Below, in pieces: positions 2,986 through 40,646 of a stretch of DNA of 40,646 nt. Source of the stretch: Asterionella formosa (Eukaryota); contig NKIB01014774.1 in the NCBI GenBank assembly GCA_002256025.1, positions 1 to 40,646 of the forward strand. The letters run 5' to 3'. Position numbers and translations under genes: made by a program. The notes beneath the pieces are model-generated. The model was not told the DNA's origin. It saw only the letters and a program-made list of their open reading frames with translations, and did no database searches. Position 1 is the first letter of the stretch. Each line of letters begins with the position of its first letter.

Positions 2986-3555
2986 AAGGAATTAGTACTA
3001 TGATGACAAAGGAAATCTGATGAGACATGAAAATTACGAAACCAGAATCACTCTGTTACTATAAATATACGGCACAGTCTCATGCTTCTTTGTGCATATC
3101 GCCTGCTATGCTGCGTTTCAATTCTGGATGTATTACGTTCTTGTTAGAGAGAGGATGTTCGGAGAAGTAGATTGTGCTGTTCTATAATGGATGTTGTTTA
3201 CTAGCTATGATTGAGGTTGTAACACTGACCGATGCTCCAGTGACAGACCGGCCGGAAATATTCGTCTTGTGTGATGAGCCATTTCGTTTTCATTGGATTT
3301 CTTTTCAAGCTCTTAACGGATTGCATAGTACGAACATACTGTGCAATGTAGACGATGATTCATCAAAGACATATGATGACTTGAACGACAAATGAAGATT
3401 TTATCACAAAATCTCGTTCCTCTCAACATGGCTGCTTTGTCGTTGTTGCAAGAATCAGAGCGAGGACTGGAGAGGATGATGAGCCAAACCACATTACTTT
3501 CACTGGTACATTTTCCTACCAAGAAATTTAAATAAAAGAACCTAAAAGAAACAAT

Positions 3556-3727
3556 ACATATAATGATTAAATTTCCATAGTCAAAAGGGTACTATTTAAA
3601 TTACGAGGGCATTTATCACAATTATTAGATGATATAACGAAAAATTATGATCAGATGATCATAATCCTATGATGCATCATAGGAATAGCTATGATGGTTT
3701 TTATTTGCAGACGGATGCTTCTGTTCA
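3556..3727. repeat. Copy 1 of an AT-rich direct repeat carrying a perfect 20-bp palindrome
   Basis: TCCTATGATGCATCATAGGA at 3665-3684. Flanking blocks TAGTCAA, TTACGAGGG, ATCAGATGATCATAA and TATGATGGTTTTTATTTGCAGA are shared with copy 2. Confidence 0.85.
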
Positions 3728-4004
3728 ATCAATGTATCACGACTACTAAGATGGAATTGTGATATATACTTCCAATCGTCATCTGTTGTGAGCTGTCACT
3801 CTATTATATTTGTCTTCGGATTATTGGTGATTGGTGCATCCTCGTTTCTTCCTTGAAAGGGTGGATAGAAAGGCGATATCTTCTTGTTAAAAGGAGTCGA
3901 CAGCAATGAAATAGCATTTTCGTAAGAATCAGGATCTTGATGATAAGGTCGTTCTGTTGTTTTCTGCAGATGATTTATTATTCGCATAGTCTTCATAAGC
4001 ATGA

Positions 4005-4145
4005 ATTGCATAATAATTAAATATAAGTAGTCAAGTGGGTTACTTTTAGATTTACGAGGGTACATCAGAATTATCAGATGATCATAATCCTATGATGCAT
4101 CATAGGAATATGATGGTTTTTATTTGCAGATGCAGTCTTGTTCAT
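4005..4145. repeat. Copy 2 of the AT-rich palindrome-bearing direct repeat
   Basis: The same palindrome occurs at 4088-4107, 423 bp from the first, with the same flanking blocks. Confidence 0.85.
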
Positions 4146-4820
4146 GTGGGGATAGAATGTCTTGCACGAGTCTCTGAACCTTAACTTGGAAAGGAGGGGA
4201 TGATACCACCACTACTACTGCGGAGGCTGATATGGCAGGATATTGGTTAGGCCCATCGAGTTTTCGCCAGAGACAGAGGAGAGGTAATTCTTCACCAAGA
4301 ACTTCAAGAGAGAGTGCTTTGAGTTGAGCTTGGAGCTCGTTGCGGTTCATGCGGGAAGAAGAGTATAGGAGCCAGCCACAATTGGTGGGGAGATCACTGT
4401 AGAATTGATCTTCTCTGATGTCCAGGCAGGATGCGATCTCTCGATGAGAGAGAGAGAAGAGCTGAGGTTGCTTTGCAGGTACAGAGATGGACTCTACTTT
4501 GACTATGCGGTCATCAAGGTTCCTCCAGAAGAAGGTAAGAGGAATTGTTCAAGCGAATCAAATGTTGTAGAGCAGTTTGTTTTAGACATGAAAAGTACGT
4601 GTCTGATTAGTCTGAATCAATATTATTTTTAAACCCTACCTCGAGCTAGGGGTTCAAATGCAGGAACCTCAATTGACTGTTCTACCGGTATCTATCCGAC
4701 ACTTGTTGGTTGTGACCCCTTGCAACAAAACAAAGTATTTTCGAAGCTCTCATGATAAGATTCACACTCTGAATTGCGAGTCACCATACCGGTAGCTTAT
4801 TGCTCAATGATAGTGATTCG

Positions 4821-6356
4821 ATGCGGCATTTCTTACTGCTTATCTCCTTCCTGTTAGTAAGTAAGGATTCAGTCATCGCTGTTTATCCAGCGTGGAGGGA
4901 CGCCGATCAGCATGGATTCTGGTCGAACGCATGTCACTGCCCTCGGGGAGGCTCACTACCGCTAGTAGCGCCGGATTATGCGACCACCTCAATCATAAAA
5001 GAAATCGAGTCGTCCATCGACGAAACACCGCTTTGCCATCCATCCAACATCGACGCTGCCGCTGGAGACTTCTCGCCGACTCATGGACGAACTGCATATA
5101 AATTCTTAAAGGGACTAGCATCGTCGCCGACGTTCATCAAGGAATACTGGCACAAGCAACCGCTTCTGATCCGGGGTTCCAAAGGGAATTGGATTTCCGA
5201 CGCATTTACCATTGAACGAGACCTAAAACTAGTTGATGGATCCTACATTTCTGGCCATAAGACTGCAGATATTATGCGCAATGGATCCAAGACAGATACA
5301 TGGGCGTTTGTCCCATTGAAAGCAGATCCAGCCCGGGCAACAACATGGCAAGAAGTCGCCGAAGCCATGGAGGGAGGAACTATTTACTTCAATACCGCTG
5401 GATCACTCTGGTCAGCGCTAGGGGGGCTCTGTAGACTTACGAATGCAGCATTTGGACTTCCGGCAAATGTTAACGTATACATTACACCTCCTGGTCAGAT
5501 TTTGTCAGTCTCGCCGCACACAGACCGTCAAGATGTTTTGGTCTTTCAGACCCAAGGACGTAAGCGATGGAGAGTTTATGCGCCACCAAAACGAAGCAAG
5601 GGTGTAGATCCGTTGAATCGGGGAAAGGCCGGAGACGTTCTTTCGTTTGAGGAGCTGGGCAAGCCAATGATCGATACTGTTCTGCAAAAGGGCGATCTAC
5701 TCTACGTTCCAGCAGGCTTCCCACACACGACAGATACGAGCCATTCCATTGATCTAACAAGCAACGAGGGTCAAGAAAATTCGGTGCACCTAACCATGGG
5801 ACTAGATACTCATGTGTGGGGACTTACGCTCGCTCATCTGCGATGGTCAGTGTTGCAACGATGTGGAAAAGAGCATACCATCAACATAGAAAGCGATTTG
5901 ATTTATTGGCAAGCTATGGAAACCATTCCCATTGGATTTCTTGTCAGTGGGAACAGTTGGAAGGATACCATTAATAATATTAAGGAAGGAAAAGGCGTGG
6001 ACGAAAACTATTGCAAGTTGGTTACGGACGAACTCAAGCGAATCATGGCCGTACTCGAACCCGATCGGTGGAAGGATGAAAAGCTGCCGTCGGATGGCGA
6101 CATTCACCAAGTTATTGACTATATGATCACTCAGCACCTTCAAAACCTCATGGTGGTTCAGGAGGAAATGCTGAGTGACGTCAGGCCCAATGACGACGAC
6201 AGTTTGATTAAGGCATACCAGTGTACGCAGCGACAAAATATTGTCATGGAAGAGTTTGGCGTCTTTAGCAAGAATGATGCAATGAAAGAAATGTTCCAGA
6301 AGATGAGACTTTCACGAGAAGAAAAGGCAAATAAGTTGAAACAGGACCTTGATTAA
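4821..6356 (+). CDS. JmjC/cupin-type 2OG-Fe(II) oxygenase, ribosomal oxygenase (NO66/MINA53/YcfD)-like, with predicted signal peptide
   Basis: Uninterrupted ORF with first ATG at 4821. Motifs: F..EYWHKQPLLIR, ANVNVYITPP, metal-binding PHTDRQDVLVFQTQGRKRWRVY (HxD) and LQKGDLLYVPAGFPH (distal His), SVHLTMG. Hydrophobic N-terminus MRHFLLLISFLLV. Confidence 0.88.
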   Translation: MRHFLLLISFLLVSKDSVIAVYPAWRDADQHGFWSNACHCPRGGSLPLVAPDYATTSIIKEIESSIDETPLCHPSNIDAAAGDFSPTHGRTAYKFLKGLASSPTFIKEYWHKQPLLIRGSKGNWISDAFTIERDLKLVDGSYISGHKTADIMRNGSKTDTWAFVPLKADPARATTWQEVAEAMEGGTIYFNTAGSLWSALGGLCRLTNAAFGLPANVNVYITPPGQILSVSPHTDRQDVLVFQTQGRKRWRVYAPPKRSKGVDPLNRGKAGDVLSFEELGKPMIDTVLQKGDLLYVPAGFPHTTDTSHSIDLTSNEGQENSVHLTMGLDTHVWGLTLAHLRWSVLQRCGKEHTINIESDLIYWQAMETIPIGFLVSGNSWKDTINNIKEGKGVDENYCKLVTDELKRIMAVLEPDRWKDEKLPSDGDIHQVIDYMITQHLQNLMVVQEEMLSDVRPNDDDSLIKAYQCTQRQNIVMEEFGVFSKNDAMKEMFQKMRLSREEKANKLKQDLD

Positions 6357-6988
6357 ATGGAAATGGAAAGACAGTGTGGCCTTTTCAGATGGACGAGCAT
6401 GCTTGCGAGCGGTAGAATGAGAAACTCAGATACGCATCCTTGGTCAAGACTTCATCCTTCCTTGCATAATATTTTCTTCTGTTCATCATATGCTGATTGA
6501 GATATTGTGTGTTTTTTATCATTTTGAAGAACCTTATTCCTTTAGTGCCATGCCCTAGCGGTCAATAGCATTTTTAGCAGTGGCGGGTTTGCCCAACTAG
6601 TGCTCAAGGCATGCTGCTGGTGGCTGGGGCTTCTGCTGAGCTTTTTACTGAACTATGCCAACCCTTACTAAGGTACCCTCTGAGTGTCAGAATCATTCAC
6701 ATCTGAGTTTTTGTTATGTTGCCTGTTTAATTCGACGTTTTCTTCTTTCCTAAGTGCACAGCGTAAAACATATTTGGAACTCCGCTGTTTGTTTAGACAA
6801 TGCATGTTCTATATAGTCTATCCACACTAGAGATACACATTTGCCTGCCTTTAAGACTAAAGTGCTAGTATAAAATGATATTCATTTTTATGGGCCATCT
6901 GTACTTCCCTTTTTCTGGGCACTTATTCATTGTGCAACCTGGCAATAAGATTTGTGCCTCCCAAGGTCTGTTAGGATACCCAATACAT

Positions 6989-7165
6989 CAACTTCAGCTG
7001 TGGCCAGACCCCCTTCGTAGCTAAGCACCAACTCCAGCTCTGGTCAGAACCCCTACCCAACAATCACCAACTTCAGCTCTGACCAAAACCCCTACCCAAT
7101 CACCAACTTCAGCTCCAACCACAACCCCTACCTTAGCACCAATTTCAGCCAAAACCCCTACCCAA
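6989..7165 (+). repeat. Minisatellite of ~36-40-bp units with Pro/Thr-rich coding potential (probable relic of a cell-surface protein gene)
   Basis: About five units of CCAACTTCAGCT...AACCCCTACC. One stretch reads PTSAPTTTPTLAPISAKTPTQ, but indels between units break the frame. Confidence 0.7.
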
Positions 7166-7694
7166 TGCTGGTACCTATGTGTGTTGATGCTGACACAAAT
7201 ACATACATCTATCCCTACTCAAAAATACTGCCACTGTGCCAACACAGATTCCAACCACTGCCCCTACTAGTATCATTTGTATGCTTGAAAAAACATCTTC
7301 TGAAAGCATCAAAGCAAGAACAAAGATCAAGGAATTCAGGGAAGATTTGATTTGTTTCTAAATTTCATACAGCCTAGCTATGTATGCCAAGTACTTCTAA
7401 TCCTTTGTTTACTCAGATTTGATATCATATTACATTCAATAAAGTTGCGATCATTTTGCTGAAACTGACAACATGGCACTGGACAGACATTCACTCAAAT
7501 TCTATCAAAGTCAACAGCCTTGTTTAAGAATGATTTTCTGAAAAAACCAGTTTCCTTAACCTTCCCACAGGTGTTCGATTTTGGGGTTTTTACTTCCAAT
7601 CTGAACCAACGCTACTCTCCGCCTGGCTGCCTTTTTTTTTTTTTAAAGTCGATACAGTTTTGGCTTTTCTGAACGGGTTCCAGATTCTTATGGG

Positions 7695-8567
7695 ATGGCT
7701 TCTATTCGATGGCAAATTCTAATCCTACTTGCAGGGCTTTTGCTATTGATAATAATCCAGAGCCTTAACGCAGGTTTCCAACTACAGGGGTACACGGAAG
7801 TGGAGGAGCAAGAGGCAACAACACCGGTCAATGCAGTTCCGATTGAACGAATTCCACATTCACTGTGGTTCACGTACATGCACAACATTCTCGCGACAAA
7901 GCAACCCACGCATTACTACAACAACATCGTCAAGACTATTCATGCCTATCATGATGTATGGAACAATGATACAGAAATGGAAGTCCACTTCCTGATTGAC
8001 AGTGACTGTACAGATCTCTTGAAGCAAGTGGACGAGGAACTAAATCTCAGTCTCACCAACGCCTTTCTCGGGGAATCCCACGGACAATTCAAAGCTGACT
8101 TGTGTCGCATTGCCGCATTATATTTGCATGGTGGCTACTATTTTGACATTGATATGGAGGTCGTTCAGCCCCTGTTACTAGATGACAATGTATCATTTAG
8201 CACAGCAGTAGCCACCCTGTTCCCTGTCTTTTTTCAATCCTATTTGGCCAGTATTCCGCGGCACCCTATCATTCGTCATAATCTAGATACAATGGATGAG
8301 TACTACAGAGGCGAAGGAGAATGTTGGGATCAGAGGACCGGAATTGTTGGATGTTGCACATTGATGACTGCTTGGAATCGAACACAAAGTAGGGGAACAG
8401 TCAAGATACTAGAGGAAATCTATTTGAATCATGACATTCATGATGGGGCATACAGACACGTTCCATTTAGAGGTGAACTAGACACTTGTCACTGGATTGT
8501 TCATGACCCTGATGATCTTCAAGTGTATTTCTATTCCAGAATACAAGGAAGCGACAGATGCACCTGA
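7695..8567 (+). CDS. Glycosyltransferase family 32 (OCH1/SUR1-like, DxD sugar-binding) type II membrane protein
   Basis: 290-aa ORF with N-terminal TM anchor (WQILILLAGLLLLIII), RIPHSLWFT, KADLCRIAALYLHGGYYFDID (DxD) and FQSYLASIPRHP. Confidence 0.88.
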   Translation: MASIRWQILILLAGLLLLIIIQSLNAGFQLQGYTEVEEQEATTPVNAVPIERIPHSLWFTYMHNILATKQPTHYYNNIVKTIHAYHDVWNNDTEMEVHFLIDSDCTDLLKQVDEELNLSLTNAFLGESHGQFKADLCRIAALYLHGGYYFDIDMEVVQPLLLDDNVSFSTAVATLFPVFFQSYLASIPRHPIIRHNLDTMDEYYRGEGECWDQRTGIVGCCTLMTAWNRTQSRGTVKILEEIYLNHDIHDGAYRHVPFRGELDTCHWIVHDPDDLQVYFYSRIQGSDRCT

Positions 8568-9178
8568 TGTTTTACTATTAATATTTCAACAGAGTTGCAA
8601 AAAAGTGTTGTTTCCTCCAAGGATTGGTAAATTGCATGATTGAACGTCGCAATCCATCACAGATGATGAATTCTTGGAAGCATCATCATCAAGGCAGTCG
8701 TTACATTCTTTTTTTATAATGGCACATAAGGAGGTATGTGAGGCTTGGTCCCTTCCTGTGTATATGCTAGGGACTCATTTCGTTTTGGCCTGCTGACTAA
8801 TGAACGGTATAGGTACAACTGCACGAGCTCTGCAGCCATCGAGAGGTCATTGCCTGTATTAATATAATTACAGTTCTATTTCTAATGCACAGCTAGATTA
8901 GGATTGATTGCTACACGACTGTAGGAGTCGTCCAGACATTCAGGTCGATGCCGTAAATAAATGAGGTGGCCAGCTACATTGTAGCCCGTAGCTAAGTCTA
9001 ATAATGAAAACGTCGTCAAACTGTAGAGTTTTGATCTACCTACGTGAGACTTCAGTCCGGTTACTATCTAACTTGAGCTGCCTCATTGCAGTGTTAACTA
9101 CATGTCGAGAAAACAATGGCCACGAGATTCAAGTGTACTGCTACTAGTTCGAATGGGTGACTGCTTCTAATAATGCAT

Positions 9179-9806
9179 TTAGCACTTTTCAGATATCATT
9201 CCCATAGTAATGTAAACAAAACTAGGATTGGTAGCTCCTTCAGGATAGTAGGAAAAGACCATGGAACCCTCAGGGTCCATGGTGGGCGTGGTGTAAAACT
9301 GAAGTTCATCGTACATGGTCAAGAGCCACTTGCAAAACACGGGTGCCGCACTCGTAAACGCCTTAACCTCAGGTCCAGTCACCTTGCTGTCTTCCTTGAG
9401 CTTCAGTCGGAGGGCTTTGCAATATCCTCCTAGATATTCCTTGAAATCCTTCTTGCCCATGGGGACTTCCTGCAATCCGAAGCCAAAGGTCTCATCAATG
9501 ACATTGTTCACCAACTCGCTGGCACCATCGTCGCCGCCGGCTTCATCTTCTCCTCCAAAAGCATTCCCGCATCCAATGTCGACGGAGCCGCCAGAGTCCT
9601 GTGATGCGGGAGTGTGTGAGAAATGGAACTAATCATAACTACAATGATGCCACTGCAGAAATGACATGTCGTACCTTGTTGACCTTTTCGGAATCAATCT
9701 CCATCAAGCCAGGAACTTCATTGCCCTCTTTGTCCTTGACAGGACGAGGCTTGAAGGCGTCCGAGCACATCTCATCTCCAGTCCAACGGCAGCGGTAGAT
9801 AATCAT
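9179..9806 (-). CDS. TCTP: Translationally controlled tumour protein (TCTP), 2 exons: 9806-9675 and 9598-9179, ~183 aa
   Basis: Exon 1 reads MIIYRCRWTGDEMCSDAFK...EKVNK. A phase-0 GT..AG intron spans 9674-9599 (76 nt). Exon 2 reads DSGGSVDIGCGNAFGGEDE...KKDFKEYLGGYCK...YDELQFYTTPTMDPEGSMVF...EKC, all typical TCTP motifs. Confidence 0.93.
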
Positions 9807-10617
9807 GGTAGACGGGAGGGTGAGAGAACTGGTAGGTACTATCGATATTGATTAAGTAACAGGAATTTCAACCGGTACCAGTACCACTTGTTGACGGCGG
9901 GGCGGAATGAACCTTGGCTGCTGTGCATGGTACCAGGTAGCATGAAAATAAACAAAATCCCGGTATTCATATGCATAGCTATATTCTTAGTTAGTAATAA
10001 AGACACATAAATACATACCGGAAGACTGCAGGACACAGGATTACCTGGTATTTGTGATTGGACAGGAGCGAGCAAGTTGGTAGTCCCAGTAGCAATTGGT
10101 ATGATTTCTACAAAAGAATCTGTTTAGTGGTCATTACGAATCATCCACACTTGCTTTCCACTCCTTGTCTGGTCACGTTTTTGTGGTTGTCAAAGGAGGA
10201 ATCCTGTAAGCACCCTTGGGCCAAGATTCAAATAAGAAGTAAGATTCCTGTTGTCAAAACGAATCAATCGCTTGCCACTCCCCTTTGATGATCTCTTGCT
10301 CCTTTGTGGCTGTCGTCAGCCAGGACTATAAATAGCATGCATACATAGAAAATCCCAGAGTGTGCTGGTATAGGTAATTTATTCTGTACAAGGTAATCTA
10401 CTGAAGCACTATGTACGGGTACATTAGTACCACACGTGTACGTACGAAACATTGGAGGATCAATCAAAGCAAACAGAAAACAACACATGACGATCATGAT
10501 AAAAATGAGGGCGATCTTTGAGTTTGCTTCCACATTGCTCGTTCACTCCGCACACACCATACCGGTAATTGAACCAGATAATACTGCTTGGCAAGTAAGA
10601 AAACCTTGTCTTCAACG

Positions 10618-11508
10618 ATGTCATATGAAACAGTACTGTTGCAGCTCGCAATATTGCTTATGCTGCTGTCCAGTACTCAGAGTGCCTTTTGTCCATCAAA
10701 GTCGGCGCAACCAATACTGTCGCGACCTTTCATCCGCACTGCATGTTTGGCCCTCCCTCCCTCTGCCGTGGCCGACTTGAAACATCAAGGATACTGCGTC
10801 ATTCCAAACTTTATTCCAAACGACCTGCAAGCGTCGCTTCGGGCCGACGTTGCATCGCTCCGAGGCAACTCAAACTTCAAAGTGGCCAAGATTGGTCAAG
10901 ACTCGACCAATACCTTGAATCAAGAGATTCGAGTTGCAGAAACATGTTTTCTAGGAACCTCCAAGACCAATCTGCCCTATTGTGACGCAAGAAACGACCT
11001 CTATCAACTCCTGGCGGAGATACGAATGGACTTGGCTAAGGAGTTTGGGACCAATCTGGATGCCAACCTGGATGAATTATTGTATGCCTACTATCCCAAG
11101 GGGGGCTTTTATCGCCGGCATCGAGATGCTATTCCAGGATCAGCCAGTGTGTTGCGATCCTATTCTTTGCTACTCTATTTGAATGAGGGGGTTTGGGAAG
11201 AGCGTCAAGGTGGTCAATTGAGATTGCACTTGGATGCAGGACGAGACGTTTTGCCACAGGGCGAAACCCCCAACTTTGTGGATATCTTACCACAAGGGGG
11301 AACGCTGGTGCTACTCAAATCGGATTCAATTCCACATGAAGTCTTGGATACAAATTCAGAACGAATTGCCTTGGTGGGTTGGTACAATCGGGCCGTGTCT
11401 GCAGGGGATATTTCGAATTTGGCGGGAGAGGGCGAGAAGTCGCAGCTACTTTTGCTAGCTGTAGCGGCAGCCTTGGTCACGGTGGGGTTGGTAAATATCC
11501 TCGGGTAA
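10618..11508 (+). CDS. Prolyl-4-hydroxylase-like (EGLN/PHD/SM-20-like) 2OG-Fe(II) oxygenase, probably plastid-targeted, with C-terminal TM helix
   Basis: First ATG at 10618. Signal peptide ends TQSA|FCP (ASAFAP-type). Motifs YPKGGFYRRHRD (HxD), LLYLN, GGQLRL, PHEVL and RIALVGWY. Hydrophobic tail LLLLAVAAALVTVGLVNILG. Confidence 0.87.
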   Translation: MSYETVLLQLAILLMLLSSTQSAFCPSKSAQPILSRPFIRTACLALPPSAVADLKHQGYCVIPNFIPNDLQASLRADVASLRGNSNFKVAKIGQDSTNTLNQEIRVAETCFLGTSKTNLPYCDARNDLYQLLAEIRMDLAKEFGTNLDANLDELLYAYYPKGGFYRRHRDAIPGSASVLRSYSLLLYLNEGVWEERQGGQLRLHLDAGRDVLPQGETPNFVDILPQGGTLVLLKSDSIPHEVLDTNSERIALVGWYNRAVSAGDISNLAGEGEKSQLLLLAVAAALVTVGLVNILG

Positions 11509-15766: not shown

Positions 15767-16749
15767 GGTGAATTAGGATAGTTCAACTGCCACTGCTGGC
15801 TGATTGATGGAATAGAGTCGAACAAAGAGCACTCTAGAAGAGTATAGAAGGGGTATAATGCAACAAGTTGTGGGGTACTCCTAGCAAAGACGATTCATAC
15901 ACGGCAGGTGAAATTTATAAATAACAACAGGGCGTTAAAACACAGATTTGGCAGGATCTCACGACTCTGGATTGAATCGCGTCGTCATTGGCGGCTGATA
16001 TGTCTCTTGCCAGTATCAATAAACCGGTATTGGAAAACAAGTTACGAGGCGCCGTAGTAAAGCAAAACCGTTTATGCCGGTATATCCGTGATGGATATTT
16101 AATATAAATATTGTAGCGCTCTATCTTGTCTACACTCGTCAAATACCGGCGACATACTGATATTGGATGACATACTGGATGTCGTCGAGGCAAGGTATCA
16201 CGGAGAAATTTCTACAAGCAAGCATCAGTTGGGTGAGGTTGCACATGACAGGGTTGGCTTGTTGAAGCAGATGTAAATGAATTTTGGGGAGCCAGTGGCC
16301 AACCAGCTGAATGTGGTCAGCGTCAACCTGGGCACATCAGATGAGCGTGATCATTGCACCACTACTAGTAGTGTGGAGAGAACAACAAGCAAGTAGCTAA
16401 TAACAACATCAGTGGGGAAAACACCTAATGGAGGTTCTTCAATGATGGTGGCAGAGGCCCACAGGCTGCAGTGATAATTTAAAATTTTGAATTGAAGACT
16501 TTCTTGGATTGTAGCTAGAACACAATGTTTGTCTTCCTTGGTCAACTGAGCTTGTCGTCTAGGTCTACAGTGTGTGCTCAGACCAGTATTAATCAGGTAT
16601 GCTTTTGGAGTGAGCAAAATTGACAAATAATGTCAAGTTAATCCTGCTAGACTGCTGGGGTATGAATTATAGTACTATTTCTGGGTGCAGGAACAGGGTT
16701 GAGCCATCGATCACTTCCCAGGCTAGCTATAATAATCCTCATCAGAATT

Positions 16750-18900
16750 TTCCTAGAAAAAATTTCTACAATCATGTACAGTAGATAGGAGTGTTGCAGA
16801 ATGTATAATAAAAATAACTTCTATACTACAACTGGGATAGAATAGAAAGAAATGGCGCCTTTGACAAAAAAATTTAGTAGAGATCATAATGCCAACAAAT
16901 GTAGTGATATCTACCTTAATGCTGCAGAGGAGAGATGGTTGAGGATACCTGATCTTGTGAGAGGAAGAAAGGCGGTAAACAAAAATTCTTGAATTGGGAA
17001 CTGGATACTGGCAAGGCTTCATGAAGAGGAACAAGCACCTGGTAACAAGCAGAAAGTTTGTCAAGTTTGACAGCAACAAACATGCAGACTGGTGCACTTA
17101 CCAAATTTTTGAAGCAATGTATGATATTGAAAATTAAGTCAATTAAATTTATATCATTTCAATATCCAATAATGAAACTTGGGACCAAATATATGGATAC
17201 AATTAGTTCCGGTTTTATTCGTCTGTTAAGTGCAACAGGACCTGTCTTTTTGTCAGCTGCATCCCCCAGAACCCTAGGGAATACATGAAAAAGACAGGGG
17301 AGAATGCAGGAATCAAACCCGCCACTGCAGAAGGTGTGCTAACCACCAAGCCATTCCCCTGAAACAATGTATACTGAGGTATACGAGGAGATGGTGAAAG
17401 GAGGAAATGCGAACAAATTTATCTCCAGTGTAAAGCTGAGCAAGAAGGGACTGATTGTAGAACACAAACTTAAGCCATTTGGGATGGACATAAAATACTA
17501 TCTGATCAGACAGGAAAAGCTGTTGTTTCTGGATGAAGTTGGATCTACCATATTCACAGACAAATGATGGAAACATTGGGTGTCAGAATTTATTGTGTAG
17601 CAAAGAGCAATGACCACAACAAAGAAGTACAACAAAGGATGCACACTTTCCTGTGCTTGGTTTCACAGCAACAAATGGCTTACCTGGTATGTGCGAAATC
17701 ACCTTTGCTGCCAAGGAATTAGAAGAGTCATTGGTACTGGGCTTCGATCCAACAGTGGAATGGAAAGGAGCTGAAGACAATATTGAGGCATACACAGGGA
17801 GAAACAAACGCTATCCAATGGACCCTTCATGTTTGTTCAATTGAATTGCAGTCCCAACCTTCTATTGCTGTTCTGAGAATGGATCGATAACAGCAGAGCT
17901 CCTTGTTGAGATGCTGAAGTGATGGAAAGACTAAACTGGTTTGACTGAACTTACAATGTGCTACCTTTCCTGATTCTGGATGGGCATGGTAACCGACTCA
18001 ATCTCCTTTTTCTTAAAAAATTGTCAATACACCAGCAAAAAAATGAATGTTTGTATCAGGTTGGTTTCCCCAGTATGGAACATCATATTGGCAAGTAGGT
18101 GAGAATGTCCAACAAAATGGTTGCTTCAAAATGGCACTGACAAGATTCAAGCAAGAGCTACTTACAAAGAAAGAAGGACGCCAAGCTGAGTTTGCAATTG
18201 AGAAAGATGACATTGTTGACCTGGTAGCCCGTGCCTGCAAAGTATCATTTGTCCAAGTTGACAACAATCTGAATGCAGCAATTGCCGAAAAGGGATGGGG
18301 ACCATTAAACTACAGAACACTTCTTCCTGGTGAAATACACCTGTCAGCAGTTTCAGCAACCCAGACAGAATTGAAAGCCGCTATCTCAACTAGTCTATCA
18401 CACCAGCAGGACTTAATCTAAATTTAGTTATCACCAGCACCCTTCTTGACAAAGTTATTGAACGCAGGAACAGAGAGGATTCAAGGAATGGCACAAATCT
18501 TGATCAGATGACTTGCCAGCGAAAGGAGTTGGCGCTATTGGCGATCGCGCAAAATAAAAGGTAAATGGCAGGACTTCATATGGTGGCCGGGCGCTTTAAA
18601 CTGGGAACGGAAGCACTGGACGATATGACTAGGAGGAGGAGAAGTAGATCGAGAAAATGAATAAGACAGCCAGTTGTGGATCTTACAACGACATTGAACA
18701 AGGTGCAAGCGATCAGAGCTCTCAACAAATAGCTACACGAGTGAACAGTGGTACAAATAAAAACAATGTTGTTGTGGTACAAACGAATTGGTGATGTGCC
18801 ATTACCTGCAACAAAAGAGCTTATTGCTGTTTGGTACATATGAACATGAAGCCTGAAGTAATTGTCAAAGTCCAATCCTCCGTCCCCCGAAAAAGGCATC
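16750..18900 (+). mobile_element. Degraded pogo/DDE_1-type transposase relic, interrupted by an insertion at 17123-17359
   Basis: Fragments GYWQGFMKRNKHLV, DWCTYQIFEAMY|TEVYEEMV, LLFLDEVG, VLGFTATNGLPGMC, FLILDGHG and PQYGTSYWQVGENVQQNGCFKM, with several stops and frameshifts. Ends not defined. Confidence 0.75.
17123..17359 (-). mobile_element. Candidate tRNA-derived SINE (237 bp) with 13-bp target-site duplication
   Basis: Flanked by TGAAGCAATGTAT (17110-17122) and TGAAACAATGTAT (17360-17372). The minus strand starts GGGGAATGGCTTGGTGGTTAGC (A-box-like) and contains GCGGG-TTTGATT-CCTGC (T-arm/B-box) followed by ATTCTCCCC. The 3' end is AT-rich. Confidence 0.7.
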
Positions 18901-19198
18901 AATACCTTACAAGCTTGCTTGGGAGCAGCCACTCTACTTTCGTTAGTGCAAGTGTCAAAAGTTTGCGGCATTGGAATGGAGAATCAAGTGAATTGCATAC
19001 TCTTTTCCAGGGGTGTAAAAGTATGTTAGGATTGACACAATTTCAATCTGAACAATAGTTAGTTCACTAAAGCTGCAAGTCTGTACCCAGAACAATGTCA
19101 GGTCCTATAGTTATATTTCGGTGGTGTAAAGAAATGCTAGTTCACAACTATCATAGGGAGTCAACCTTGCCCCTACTTAAAGAATGTTCCGAGTGAAA

Positions 19199-19900
19199 TT
19201 AACGCATAACTCCACCAGCAATTGTCCTCGTTTTACAAGGACCGGCCGATGTTGTAAATACATGGCCATTCCAAGCTCCTTCACAAGCATCGGTGGTTTT
19301 CATCCCTTCCATGCAAGCTGCAAATACTTTCTTCTTTTCTACCTGTGCTGCACTCCATGGTTGCGGAACTGGCAACCCGTGAAACGTCACGACTTCACCA
19401 ATGACGGCGTCGGCTGGCGGTTCGACAAATTCCACCAATTCACTTCCATCCTCCCTTGTCGTGGCTGCACATAATACCATACCATGCGACTTGAATCCCA
19501 CCAAATTCTTTGCCTTGAGATTACTCACAACCAACAGACGCTGACCCAACATTTGTTCCAGCGTAAAGTGCGGTCGGAGCCCGGATGCAATTTGACGAGG
19601 TACATCTTCACCAACATCAATTTCTTCACAATACAATTTATCGGCGTCCGGATGAACCCATACATTCGTAATGACGCCGACTTTAAATTCTAGTTTGCAA
19701 ATGTCCGGCAGTTCAGCGTCACCCTGAGTGACGCTGGGTTTCGTCGCAGCAAATGGCGGTTTGGCGGCTTGCTTTGATTTATTTGGCTTGATTGCTAGCT
19801 CTTTGGTACTGAGGATGGGAGCATTGGGCTCCAAGCCGAGCTTGGCCTCCAAGTCGGCAATGATTTCGTCGAGCAAGTCAATGGCGCTCATCGTGCTCAT
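19199..19900 (-). CDS. tRNA-binding OB-fold protein (EMAPII/AIMP1/Arc1p/Trbp111-like), ~233 aa
   Basis: Motifs LEFKVGVI..V..HPDADKLYCEEIDVGEDVPRQIASGL, NLKAKNLVGFKSHGMVLCA and VEPP. The N-terminal helix DLLDEIIADLEAKL is followed by a K/P/A linker. Likely start is the ATG at 19900 (or 19891) rather than 20077. Confidence 0.9.
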   Translation of the reverse strand: MSTMSAIDLLDEIIADLEAKLGLEPNAPILSTKELAIKPNKSKQAAKPPFAATKPSVTQGDAELPDICKLEFKVGVITNVWVHPDADKLYCEEIDVGEDVPRQIASGLRPHFTLEQMLGQRLLVVSNLKAKNLVGFKSHGMVLCAATTREDGSELVEFVEPPADAVIGEVVTFHGLPVPQPWSAAQVEKKKVFAACMEGMKTTDACEGAWNGHVFTTSAGPCKTRTIAGGVMR

Positions 19901-33876: not shown

Positions 33877-33999
33877 GGGGGGGGGGGGGGGGGAAAAAAA
33901 AGGTATCAATTTTGTTTAAATGATACAAAATTGATACCTTCAAGTTACCATTGCTGATACCGTGTTTTGATANNNNNNNNNNCCCCCCCACCCCCCCCC

Positions 34000-34179: not shown

Positions 34180-35361
34180 AAATGAGAACATTCTTCAGCT
34201 TGCAAGAAAAATGCGACATCATGGGCGGACTCCCTGGCAACATCAAAGCTGTTGCACGTAAGTATGGCATCAGTGCCAACAATATTCAGCGCAGGAAAGC
34301 TAGTTATCTTTCATGATTTTGACACTCAATATACCGATGTAGAAGGTTTATTGTTGGATGAGGGTCGTTCCTTTGTTAAGAAACATATGTTTCATATGGG
34401 CTATTCACGTAGAAATAGTGCAGCTGAATTTGCTGCGATTTGTCAATTGTAGTACAATCAGCTTTGCGGTGATGGTTGCGCTTTATCCGTCATGTTGCTT
34501 GCTGAAGGGAAGGGCTGAAGTGCTTGTCGGGACATTTTGTTAGCTTGATCGTCATGCAACATCGTGTAGCTCATTGGTGCGCCTCGCAAAACATTGTATA
34601 TTGTCGTATCACCCAGTTACAAGTCGCGAAACACGCACTATGTACTAAGTGTCATGCAGGAAAATCTCCAGTACATTATCACCCAGTTTCTTGTAGGGTC
34701 ATATCATTGTCTTAAAATCGTAAAAATTGATGAAACAAATATTTATTTTCACATGGTGGGTGCTGGGCTCACGCTAAACTATCAGCTTAAGCACCAATCG
34801 CAGCATGCGTTGCACAGTGTTGTTGGGCGTTTTCATGTCTGGAGAGAAGCTTGCTCCTCTTGCTGTTTTCAAAGGAGTACCTGATGCCAGGATCCAGCGA
34901 GAATTTAACAATCAACAGTTTTTGCTTATCCCCCACAGATGGTTTATTGTTGTCAGGAAAAAGCGTGGGTGGACGAGTCGGTTTTTTCTGTGTGGATTCA
35001 CGATATTTGGAAGTCACAGACAATCAGTCACCATGGCACCCAACGATCCAACCTTCTGATGGACGAGTTCCAGGTGCATTTGATGGCAACAAGCCTCAAT
35101 GCAATTGAGGATTGTGGAAGTGCTGTGGACTTCATTTGTGGAGGATACACCTCCAAACCACAGATGTCGAACGTCGGGGTAAATAAGCCCTTTAACGGCT
35201 TTGTTAGGGATGCCTATGAGAACTGGATGGTCATTCATCCTCATGGCACGAAGGTGAAGCGTCAGGATGTCTTTCAGTGTGTCTGGACAGCATGGGAGAG
35301 GGTGTCAGAAACCACAATTTTGAACTCTTGGAATTTGGTTGGTTACATTGCAAGTGACTGA
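34180..35361 (+). mobile_element. Degraded pogo/Tigger-like (CENP-B HTH + DDE_1) transposase
   Basis: MRTFFSLQEK...IKAVARKYGI (psq-type HTH), IDETNIYF, RCTVLLGVFMSGEKLAPLAVFKG, QEKAWVDE, LLMDEFQVH and GGYTSKPQMSNVGVNKPF (last catalytic D appears as N), with frameshifts. A possible left end is TA-CCGTATAATTC at 33822. Confidence 0.85.
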
Positions 35362-39348: not shown

Positions 39349-40646
39349 GGGTCGTTCTTATCATTTTTTTTCGTGTATCACGGAATTTGAATTTTTTTGA
39401 AAATGTATCAGCAACGGTAACTCGATTTGAACTGAATTTCATTCATTCCAAAAGTGTCACTGTATCACTAATTTGTGATCACATTGTATCATGGAGTAAA
39501 ATGAATCTTCAACGGCAACAGGCTGGCGAAGATCATGTGTATATCCCTCCAGAATATAATGATGGTCTTGATATCAAGCAACAACAAAATATAATTACCG
39601 GGAAACTAAATATAATATTAAAAACACACATTTGCATGAATCATGTCGTCGCCATTTGATTTACTTGATGATAATGACGATGACAGTAGTGATCTTGATT
39701 TCTTCTTCCTCTGTCATTTAACTAAGGAAGCAGAGGAAAAAGAACACTCATCCAAACGACAAAGGCGACGCTGTAAACGGCAGCTTCAGTCATCTGAACG
39801 ACGACGACAACGAAGGCACAAGTGGCACCACGAAAGAATCTCCTGGCAATCACATGTCGAGAAACTCAATCACGAGATTGCTTTCGAGAAGACATACAGA
39901 ATGTCACACAGAGCATTCAAAAAACTCACCTCCATGCTGGAAATTCAGATTGCAGGGAATTATTCCAAATGTGGCACTTCTGAGCCCATAATTCCCGAAA
40001 TTGTGGTAGCCATTGGTTTGCGATGGCTGGCTGGTGGCAGTTACATCGACATTCGTCATGCCTACGGTTGTAGCATTGCTTCACTTTATCGATGTCGTGA
40101 TTTGTTCATTGATGCTGTACTAAACTGTGAAGAACTCGAAATTATTTTTCCAAAAGAAAAAGAAGAATTTATCAAATTGGCTTCCAGCTTTGAATGCAAA
40201 AGCTCAGAGGGCGTGATGAGAGGATGTGTTGGTGCTATTGACGGCTTCCTTGCCACCATCAACCGCCCGACTATAGTTGAAAGTGGCAACAACCCTGGTT
40301 CATTTTTTTCCGGTCACTACATGACTTATGGAATCAATGTCCAGGCTGTTTGTGATGCTGACTCAAGATTTATTTATTTTGGTGTAATTGCACCGGGAAA
40401 ATGCAGTGACCAAGTAGCTTTTGAAAAAACTTCCATTTTCGATCAAGTTGCAGCATTCAACACAGGTTTTTATCTGGTCGGCGATGCAGCTTACACATTG
40501 TCTGATGTAATGCTTGTTCCCTTTGTTGGCTCACAACGTGATGATCCAACACAGGATACATTTAACTTTTTCCTTTCACAGCTAAGGATAAGAATAGAAA
40601 TGGCATTTGGTCTTCTTCAGACAAAATGGTGTGTTCTGAAAAAAAA
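39349..40646 (+). mobile_element. PIF/Harbinger DNA transposon, left part
   Basis: TTA target (39346-39348) followed by terminus GGGTCGTTCTTATC, subterminal TGTATCA repeats (~39373-39490) and the transposase ORF. Confidence 0.8.
39643..40646 (+). CDS. PIF/Harbinger (HARBI1-like, DDE_Tnp_4) transposase, uninterrupted, 3' end beyond the window
   Basis: ATG 39643 with no stop to the window end (334 codons). Motifs FEKTYRMSHRAFKKL, AIGLRWLAGGSY.DI, GCVGAIDG, FFSGHYMTYGINVQAVCD, PGKCSD, YLVGDAAY and FNFFLSQLRIRIEMAFGLLQTKW. Confidence 0.93.
   Translation, partial: MSSPFDLLDDNDDDSSDLDFFFLCHLTKEAEEKEHSSKRQRRRCKRQLQSSERRRQRRHKWHHERISWQSHVEKLNHEIAFEKTYRMSHRAFKKLTSMLEIQIAGNYSKCGTSEPIIPEIVVAIGLRWLAGGSYIDIRHAYGCSIASLYRCRDLFIDAVLNCEELEIIFPKEKEEFIKLASSFECKSSEGVMRGCVGAIDGFLATINRPTIVESGNNPGSFFSGHYMTYGINVQAVCDADSRFIYFGVIAPGKCSDQVAFEKTSIFDQVAAFNTGFYLVGDAAYTLSDVMLVPFVGSQRDDPTQDTFNFFLSQLRIRIEMAFGLLQTKWCVLKK

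Follow-up and report, generated by a model that had tools for sequence, protein, structure and literature searches.

A probable tRNA-derived SINE family in a freshwater diatom, with an exact empty site in a copy of its transposase-like host

Introduction

The class of short interspersed elements (SINEs) derived from tRNA is said to have been reviewed for animals and plants by Kramerov and Vassetzky in 2011. In stramenopiles, tRNA-like infSINE families are known from the oomycete Phytophthora infestans (PMC3522703). Among diatoms, 13 "putative SINE" copies (1,454 bp) were reported from Phaeodactylum tricornutum as the first in a diatom (PMC5859163), SINEs were recorded in Cyclotella cryptica, where their roles are called poorly understood (PMC7466962), and a SINE class was listed for Skeletonema costatum together with the remark that SINEs had earlier been reported from only two other diatom species (PMC8147415); SINEs are also given as a repeat class in a further paper (PMC12803021). 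Here we describe a 237-nt insert in a 40,646-nt stretch of DNA (contig NKIB01014774.1 of assembly GCA_002256025.1, filed under Asterionella formosa; "the window" below means this whole stretch). Very probably it is a short non-coding retroposon of a freshwater diatom and belongs, as one of many copies, to a family of tRNA-derived SINEs.

Results

The insert, its target duplication and its empty site

The element lies in antisense orientation within a degenerate member of a repeated, transposase-like gene family and has duplicated 13 bp of its target (Table 1). A repeat search recovered the two copies of the duplication, TGAAGCAATGTAT and TGAAACAATGTAT, as a direct repeat of 13 nt, 92% identical and at a spacing of 250. 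A 13-mer recurs 150-400 nt downstream with at most one mismatch at 10 of 40,191 window positions, the true pair counted, and the chance of such a repeat at a given boundary is therefore about 2.5e-4. A preliminary description of the window, made from its letters, had claimed the insert, the repeat at its borders and a series of tRNA-like features on the minus strand, and all of these are found where it placed them. The description had also held that removing the insert and one repeat copy restores the transposase frame. Once 17123-17372 is taken out, ...FEAMY and TEVYEEM... do meet in frame, and the rejoined frame fits the gap-free consensus WCTYxNFxxMYxxVYxEM of nine homologues. In four homologous proteins (P0124, P0127, P0129 and P0130) the residues to the left and right of the insert are consecutive, overlapping by the few residues that correspond to the duplicated 13 bases; in P0130, for example, tblastn places residues 302-344 on 16994-17125 and residues 340-407 on 17361-17564.

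The uninterrupted state is present in genomic DNA as well. Logan contigs of four public DNA runs were mapped onto 15800-19200 at 80% likeness, and in run X11 a 784-nt contig of depth 5.8 aligns first to 16995-17109 and then, without intervening letters, to 17360-17788; its joint passes from 17109 to 17360 and skips exactly 250 bases, that is, the 237 of the insert and the 13 of one repeat copy. Compared with the window, the bridging contig has 9 differences in its first segment (about 115 bases) and 48 in its second (about 428 bases) and thus represents a host-element copy that is about 89% identical. Other X11 contigs match the window at 99-100%, in its unique as well as its host parts, and the bridging contig is therefore most readily explained as a paralogue of the host element from the same organism or one very close to it. 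Host copies without the insert, which the preliminary description had suggested looking for, therefore occur both as the exact empty site of this contig and as homologous proteins contiguous across the site. A contig of run X3 covers 17077-17345 with 2 differences, and the filled site is therefore present in another sample too.

A dispersed family with a common 5' end

Summed contig depth over the insert lies far above that of its flanks in three runs. In X1 it reaches 108,168 (17168-17281) and 158,730 (17282-17395) against about 733 in the single-copy flanks, in X4 it is 1,129 and 1,861 over the insert bins against 18.4, and in X3 437 and 722 against 5.4, giving insert-to-flank ratios of about 60-220; the bin on the tail side (17054-17167) has a depth of 11,538. 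Since summed contig depth is not a copy number, we take the multiplicity as being of the order of a hundred only. At least 56 distinct X1 contigs lie over position 17232. Many contigs stop at the GGGGAAT terminus of the element and then continue into unlike flanks: the loose ends behind 17359/17360 (12 X1 and 9 X3 contigs) have a consensus agreement of about 0.5 and are therefore unlike one another, and those behind 17345 carry a variant 5' end, reach ...CCATTCCCC and only then diverge. Within the window itself, neither BLASTN (word size 7) nor nhmmer with the family profile found a further copy.

A metagenome search with a 21-base pattern from the T-arm and acceptor stem gave nine loci (L001-L009); the same pattern had no match in viral contigs, and a 28-base pattern across the head/body junction gave no metagenome locus. 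Five of the nine carry elements that match the insert by BLASTN and nhmmer. Four of them (L004, L005, L007 and L008) have head and body in common with it, at 73-79% identity over 161-243 nt, and the fifth, L003 from a marine sample, shares the head only (87% over 75 nt), after which a different body follows. The family profile covers window positions 17359-17125 (nhmmer, E 1.9e-69), the relatives measure 239-258 nt against the 237 nt of the window copy, lengths that fall within the 100-600 bp or so of tRNA-derived SINEs, and the flanks of the metagenome copies do not align to each other. Depth, loose ends and metagenome copies together thus describe a dispersed multi-copy family with a common 5' terminus, and not the single-copy sequence that, according to the preliminary description, would have spoken against a SINE.

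The L003 element (L003:1230-1479, 250 nt), with the same tRNA-like head, a different body and a direct repeat matching at 10 of 11 positions, may represent a second SINE family with a common head. The remaining four loci share just the 21-26-mer. L001, L002 and L006 were rejected as SINEs, having only the 21-mer in common and no Rfam family at gathering scores. L009 was considered and rejected as a parent tRNA: it holds a bacterial-type tRNA-Ser(GCT) with encoded CCA (L009:25-112) next to a tRNA-Phe, and it has only the T-arm/acceptor stretch, 21 exact bases, in common with the SINE head, which we read as coincidence.

Target duplications are seen in two of the three loci that have both flanks; the L004 sequence begins 2 nt before the element, and L008 is without the first 28 or so element positions and without the tail. 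In L007, AATTTCCTGTCT and AATTT-CTGTCT (11-12 bp, one indel) surround a 251-nt element, and in L003 the 11-bp pair GGATTTGTACT and GGATTTGTTCT surrounds the 250-nt element. Duplication length thus varies, from 13 bp in the window copy to 11-12 bp in L007 and 11 bp in L003. These lengths bear on another possible origin of the insert, as a non-autonomous DNA transposon of the miniature inverted-repeat transposable element (MITE) type, or a Helitron-type element, whose start resembles a tRNA by chance. The element is small and non-coding, one of its ends is AT-rich, and its region is rich in transposons, with open reading frames (ORFs) bearing DDE_1 and DDE_Tnp_4 domains, all of which would suit such an origin. 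However, the two marks of a DNA element named in the preliminary description, terminal inverted repeats and a duplication of fixed length, are both missing: the repeat search found no inverted pair linking the two ends of 17123-17359, and the duplications differ in length. Moreover, Helitrons make no target duplication. We therefore consider this origin very improbable.

We likewise see next to no room for the view that the insert is an intron or variable segment of the host gene, or that a chance repeat surrounds a tRNA pseudogene lying beside unrelated sequence. The insert does lie inside a reading frame, and the head of the window copy is a weak tRNA match, but the genomic DNA of the paralogue is without exactly the insert and one repeat copy, metagenome loci combine head and body within unrelated flanks, the insert as read from its sequence lacks GT..AG ends, and a repeat of this kind is rarely met by chance (see above). 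The empty site and the dispersed copies refute this view; with an empty genomic paralogue in X11, it is not the case that all host copies contain the insert, for example as an intron, the outcome that the preliminary description had considered fatal to its proposal.

The tRNA-like head and the sequence behind it

As a whole, the element consists of a tRNA-like head of 61-62 nt in which the middle of the anticodon arm is deleted, a conserved hairpin with a T-run, a body of about 130 nt, over which no Pfam or Rfam family was found, and an AT-rich tail. On the minus strand it starts with GGGGAAT, next to which come an A-box-like motif, a GCT/AGC stem, a short middle and a T-arm (GCGGG-TTTGATT-CCTGC) with a 5-bp stem and a 7-nt loop; ATTCTCC then pairs with the first seven bases, a G3-U70 wobble included. 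By the consensus of the loose ends at 17298 (26 X1 contigs, agreement 0.95), most copies have GGTTCGATTCC as their B-box-like motif, in place of the GGTTTGATTCC of the window copy. The occurrence of GGTTCGATTCC in the metagenome copies follows from the construction of the search pattern.

The likeness to tRNA is best seen in the relatives. The L004 head scores 30.0 bits against the Rfam tRNA model RF00005 (cut-off 29) and folds as a cloverleaf with a 4-bp/4-nt mini-arm (z -2.64), and the L005 head, at 28.3 bits, falls just under the cut-off. In the RF00005 alignment the acceptor stem, D-arm and T-arm match, and the anticodon arm has 5 nt where the model has 13. The fold of the window-copy head is no better than those of shuffled sequences (z -0.41). 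The tRNA head of the preliminary description therefore stands for the family, as judged from these relatives, and does not stand for the window copy taken by itself; the case for a tRNA origin depends on the better-preserved relatives, which nhmmer ties to the window copy.

Every copy whose 5' end is present keeps G3-U70; the discriminator base after ATTCTCC is A in the relatives and C in the window copy. G3-U70 and A73 form the alanine identity set. For the L003 head there is, in addition, a match to the tmRNA model in its Ala-type acceptor (E 0.0013), and the SINE head is probably close to eukaryotic cytosolic tRNA-Ala. A derivation of the head from tRNA-Ala is thus mildly favoured by its sequence.

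The long hairpin that directly follows the head has a predicted energy of -32 kcal/mol (z -5.11), and none of 200 shuffles folds as well. All five aligned copies retain its base, CCTGTC/GACAGG, and none of the 45 predicted pairs shows a compensatory change among these five; the conservation of the hairpin therefore says nothing about selection on its structure. The T5 run, which the preliminary description had raised as a caveat to its own proposal, is real and extends to the family, a run of at least 4 T being found within about 15 nt behind the head in four of the five aligned copies, with L007 as the exception.

The host relic and its surroundings

The host gene family encodes proteins of 780-999 amino acids, and one homologue comes from Fragilaria crotonensis. 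Summed contig depth over the relic is 3,000-11,500 against about 733 in the flanks. The four ORF pieces of the relic had no Pfam family at E up to 1, and in seven host homologues Pfam gave a weak HTH_Tnp_Tc5 match in one (E 0.0072) and an unrelated DUF in another. A profile of the host family found nothing relevant among solved structures, and the family shows no likeness to the DDE_1 ORF of the window. By eye, the consensus motifs LxFVDEVG, LLLDGHGSRF and PYGTSYWQVGDS look like those of a divergent pogo-type DDE transposase.

A second stretch of very high copy number, 18308-18877, lies over the sequence for the C-terminal portion of the host-family proteins, with a summed depth in X1 of 58,000-177,000 against about 733 in the flanks. 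In three runs there are contigs in which 17041 is followed directly by 18595, with 1553 bases skipped; they suggest that the host element has non-autonomous derivatives with an internal deletion.

Pfam was run in 81 scans on 77 different frames, 70 of them among the 123 window ORFs of at least 70 amino acids. The ORF at 34909-35358 (+) has a DDE_1 transposase domain (E 2e-14) and that at 39640-40644 (+) a DDE_Tnp_4 domain of Harbinger type (E 2.9e-23); DNA-transposon remains are abundant in the window. An assembly gap of 10 N lies at 33973-33982.

The assignment of the window to a diatom agrees with its protein relatives. The JmjC-type ORF at 4773-6356 has unnamed relatives at 75%, and its best named relatives are from Grammatophora oceanica (58%), Kryptoperidinium foliaceum (51%), a dinoflagellate housing a diatom endosymbiont, and Nitzschia inconspicua (46%), with brown algae at 34-35%; the Fragilaria crotonensis member of the host family points the same way. 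The ESM Atlas gave no usable taxonomic hint. Most of the runs in which the stretch occurs are freshwater metagenomes, and because of these protein relatives and runs a freshwater diatom is well supported.

Table 1. Features of the insert and of its host in the window.
Feature	Position	Strand	Basis or remark
Target-site duplication, left copy, TGAAGCAATGTAT	17110-17122		13 nt, 12/13 identical
Target-site duplication, right copy, TGAAACAATGTAT	17360-17372		Sole copy kept in the empty-site contig of run X11
Probable SINE copy, 237 nt	17123-17359	minus, antisense to host reading frame	nhmmer, contig depth, BLASTN
tRNA-like head: acceptor stem with G3-U70, 3-bp D-stem, shortened anticodon arm, T-arm	17298-17359	minus	Sequence read; Rfam on relatives
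A-box-like TGGCTTGGTGG	17343-17353	minus	Read by eye, compared with the consensus motif
B-box-like GGTTTGATTCC, one C>T against the family's GGTTCGATTCC	17309-17319	minus	Read by eye, compared with the consensus motif
T5 run six bases behind the head, possible terminator for RNA polymerase III	17288-17292	minus	Sequence read
Long hairpin directly behind the head, 5' arm holding the T5 run	17241-17298	minus	11-nt perfect arms, 17241-17251 and 17288-17298
AT-rich 3' tail without poly(A)	17123-17167	minus	Sequence; tails of the copies align poorly
Host relic, 5'-truncated and frameshifted, of a repeated transposase-like gene (800-1000 amino acid protein)	16982-18897	+	tblastn of P0122-P0131, several frames

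Discussion

Our analysis bears out the interpretation of the insert as a SINE that was put forward in the preliminary description: the sequence is multi-copy, has an exact empty site, lacks terminal inverted repeats, comes with duplications of variable length and, in its relatives, begins with a tRNA-like head. We infer that the family is transcribed by RNA polymerase III (Pol III) and mobilised by a long interspersed element (LINE). In source copies, transcription by Pol III would begin from the internal A and B boxes and continue past the T-run; the reverse transcriptase of a non-LTR (LINE) element would then copy this RNA at staggered nicks through target-primed reverse transcription, a process expected to leave variable-length duplications without inverted termini. 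The presence of LINEs in diatoms, of which 2,350 are annotated in Cyclotella cryptica (PMC7466962), is in favour of the SINE reading. The window copy itself is probably dead, since a conserved position of its B box has changed from C to T, its head is poor as a tRNA and the two copies of its duplication differ at one of 13 positions; the change of the discriminator from A to C also makes it look inactive.

Several observations weigh against this reading. The multiplicity depends on summed contig depth and is no copy number itself, the empty site depends on a single contig from a paralogue of about 89% identity, and L005, in which both flanks are present, is without a clear duplication. ARAGORN calls no tRNA in the window, and the best Rfam match of the window-copy head is tRNA-Sec, at 16.4 bits and E 2.5. 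The tail has neither poly(A) nor a simple repeat, and a candidate 3' terminal hairpin (17123-17132/17157-17166) had to be discarded, with a z of -0.55 and no counterpart recovered in three relatives. The Pfam-scanned ORFs contain no reverse transcriptase or endonuclease domain and no partner LINE. Finally, a T-run that occurs family-wide behind the head would be expected to halt Pol III before the body.

This last point could be met by a retroposon of the same anatomy that is not a plain Pol III product, its RNA being cut by RNase P from longer Pol II or read-through transcripts, or its copying being the work of a non-LINE reverse transcriptase, for example a Penelope-like one. A cut by RNase P at the tRNA-like head would give the exact GGGG 5' end. 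The T-run of four or more behind the head in four of five copies, inside a strong conserved hairpin, reproduces the layout of a tRNA gene with its terminator, and no LINE partner was seen among the Pfam-scanned ORFs. On the other hand, the A and B boxes, judged against the consensus motifs, are positioned as is usual, with some 6 nt between the start of the element and the A box, an arrangement also seen in Pol III SINEs, and a T5 run is a weak Pol III terminator in several eukaryotes. On balance, such a route seems unlikely. It is conceivable, if doubtful, that the tRNA-Ala-like head with its T-run and hairpin forms a module of several SINE families across marine and freshwater diatoms, the full-length RNA being no ordinary Pol III transcript but the outcome of regulated terminator read-through or of longer transcripts being cut by RNase P at the tRNA-like fold. 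If so, most source copies would give only a tRNA-like RNA of about 70 nt.

If the insert is a tRNA-derived SINE, as we think very probable, the locus provides a worked example from a diatom, with full anatomy, an exact empty site and copies of the order of a hundred, and with related elements in other freshwater and marine samples. It may serve as the seed for a curated family, which would be useful to annotators of diatom genomes, and as a marker system, the presence or absence of insertions being scorable among strains and species. It also implies that non-LTR retrotransposition machinery is active, or was recently active, in this lineage.

The proposal that SINEs are little described in diatoms is in keeping with the accessible text of three papers, in which they appear as automatic annotation classes only (PMC5859163, PMC7466962 and PMC8147415). 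In the accessible text of the literature searched, no description of the head, duplications or partner of a diatom SINE was found, and two further diatom papers make no mention of SINEs. Our element shares with these classes the host group and the nominal class. Unlike it, however, they are the output of automatic classifiers, and the accessible text describes no tRNA head, duplication or empty site for them; the likeness is thus one of class. The present case adds the anatomy, the empty site and the high copy number.

With the infSINEs of Phytophthora infestans (PMC3522703), the element has in common that it is tRNA-like, belongs to a stramenopile and sits inside another transposable element. 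The likeness is one of description, and since the lineage here is that of a diatom and not of an oomycete, an independent origin is likely. MITEs resemble it in being short, non-coding and high in copy number and in often lying inside other elements, but they have terminal inverted repeats and duplications of fixed length, and our element has neither.

The closest match is with the tRNA-derived SINEs of animals and plants, which the element resembles in its size of about 240-260 nt, in its 5' tRNA-like head with A and B boxes followed by an unrelated body, and in its duplications of variable length, its lack of inverted termini and its many dispersed copies. It differs from them in the reduction of the anticodon arm to a 4-bp/4-nt mini-hairpin, in the conserved T-run held in a strong hairpin directly behind the head, and in a tail without poly(A) or a simple repeat. 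The kind of element is thus a textbook one, found in a group where, as far as the accessible literature goes, such a SINE has so far been uncharacterised, and its most unusual traits are the terminator-like T-run inside the hairpin behind the head and the recurrence of this head, in a marine sample, in front of another body.

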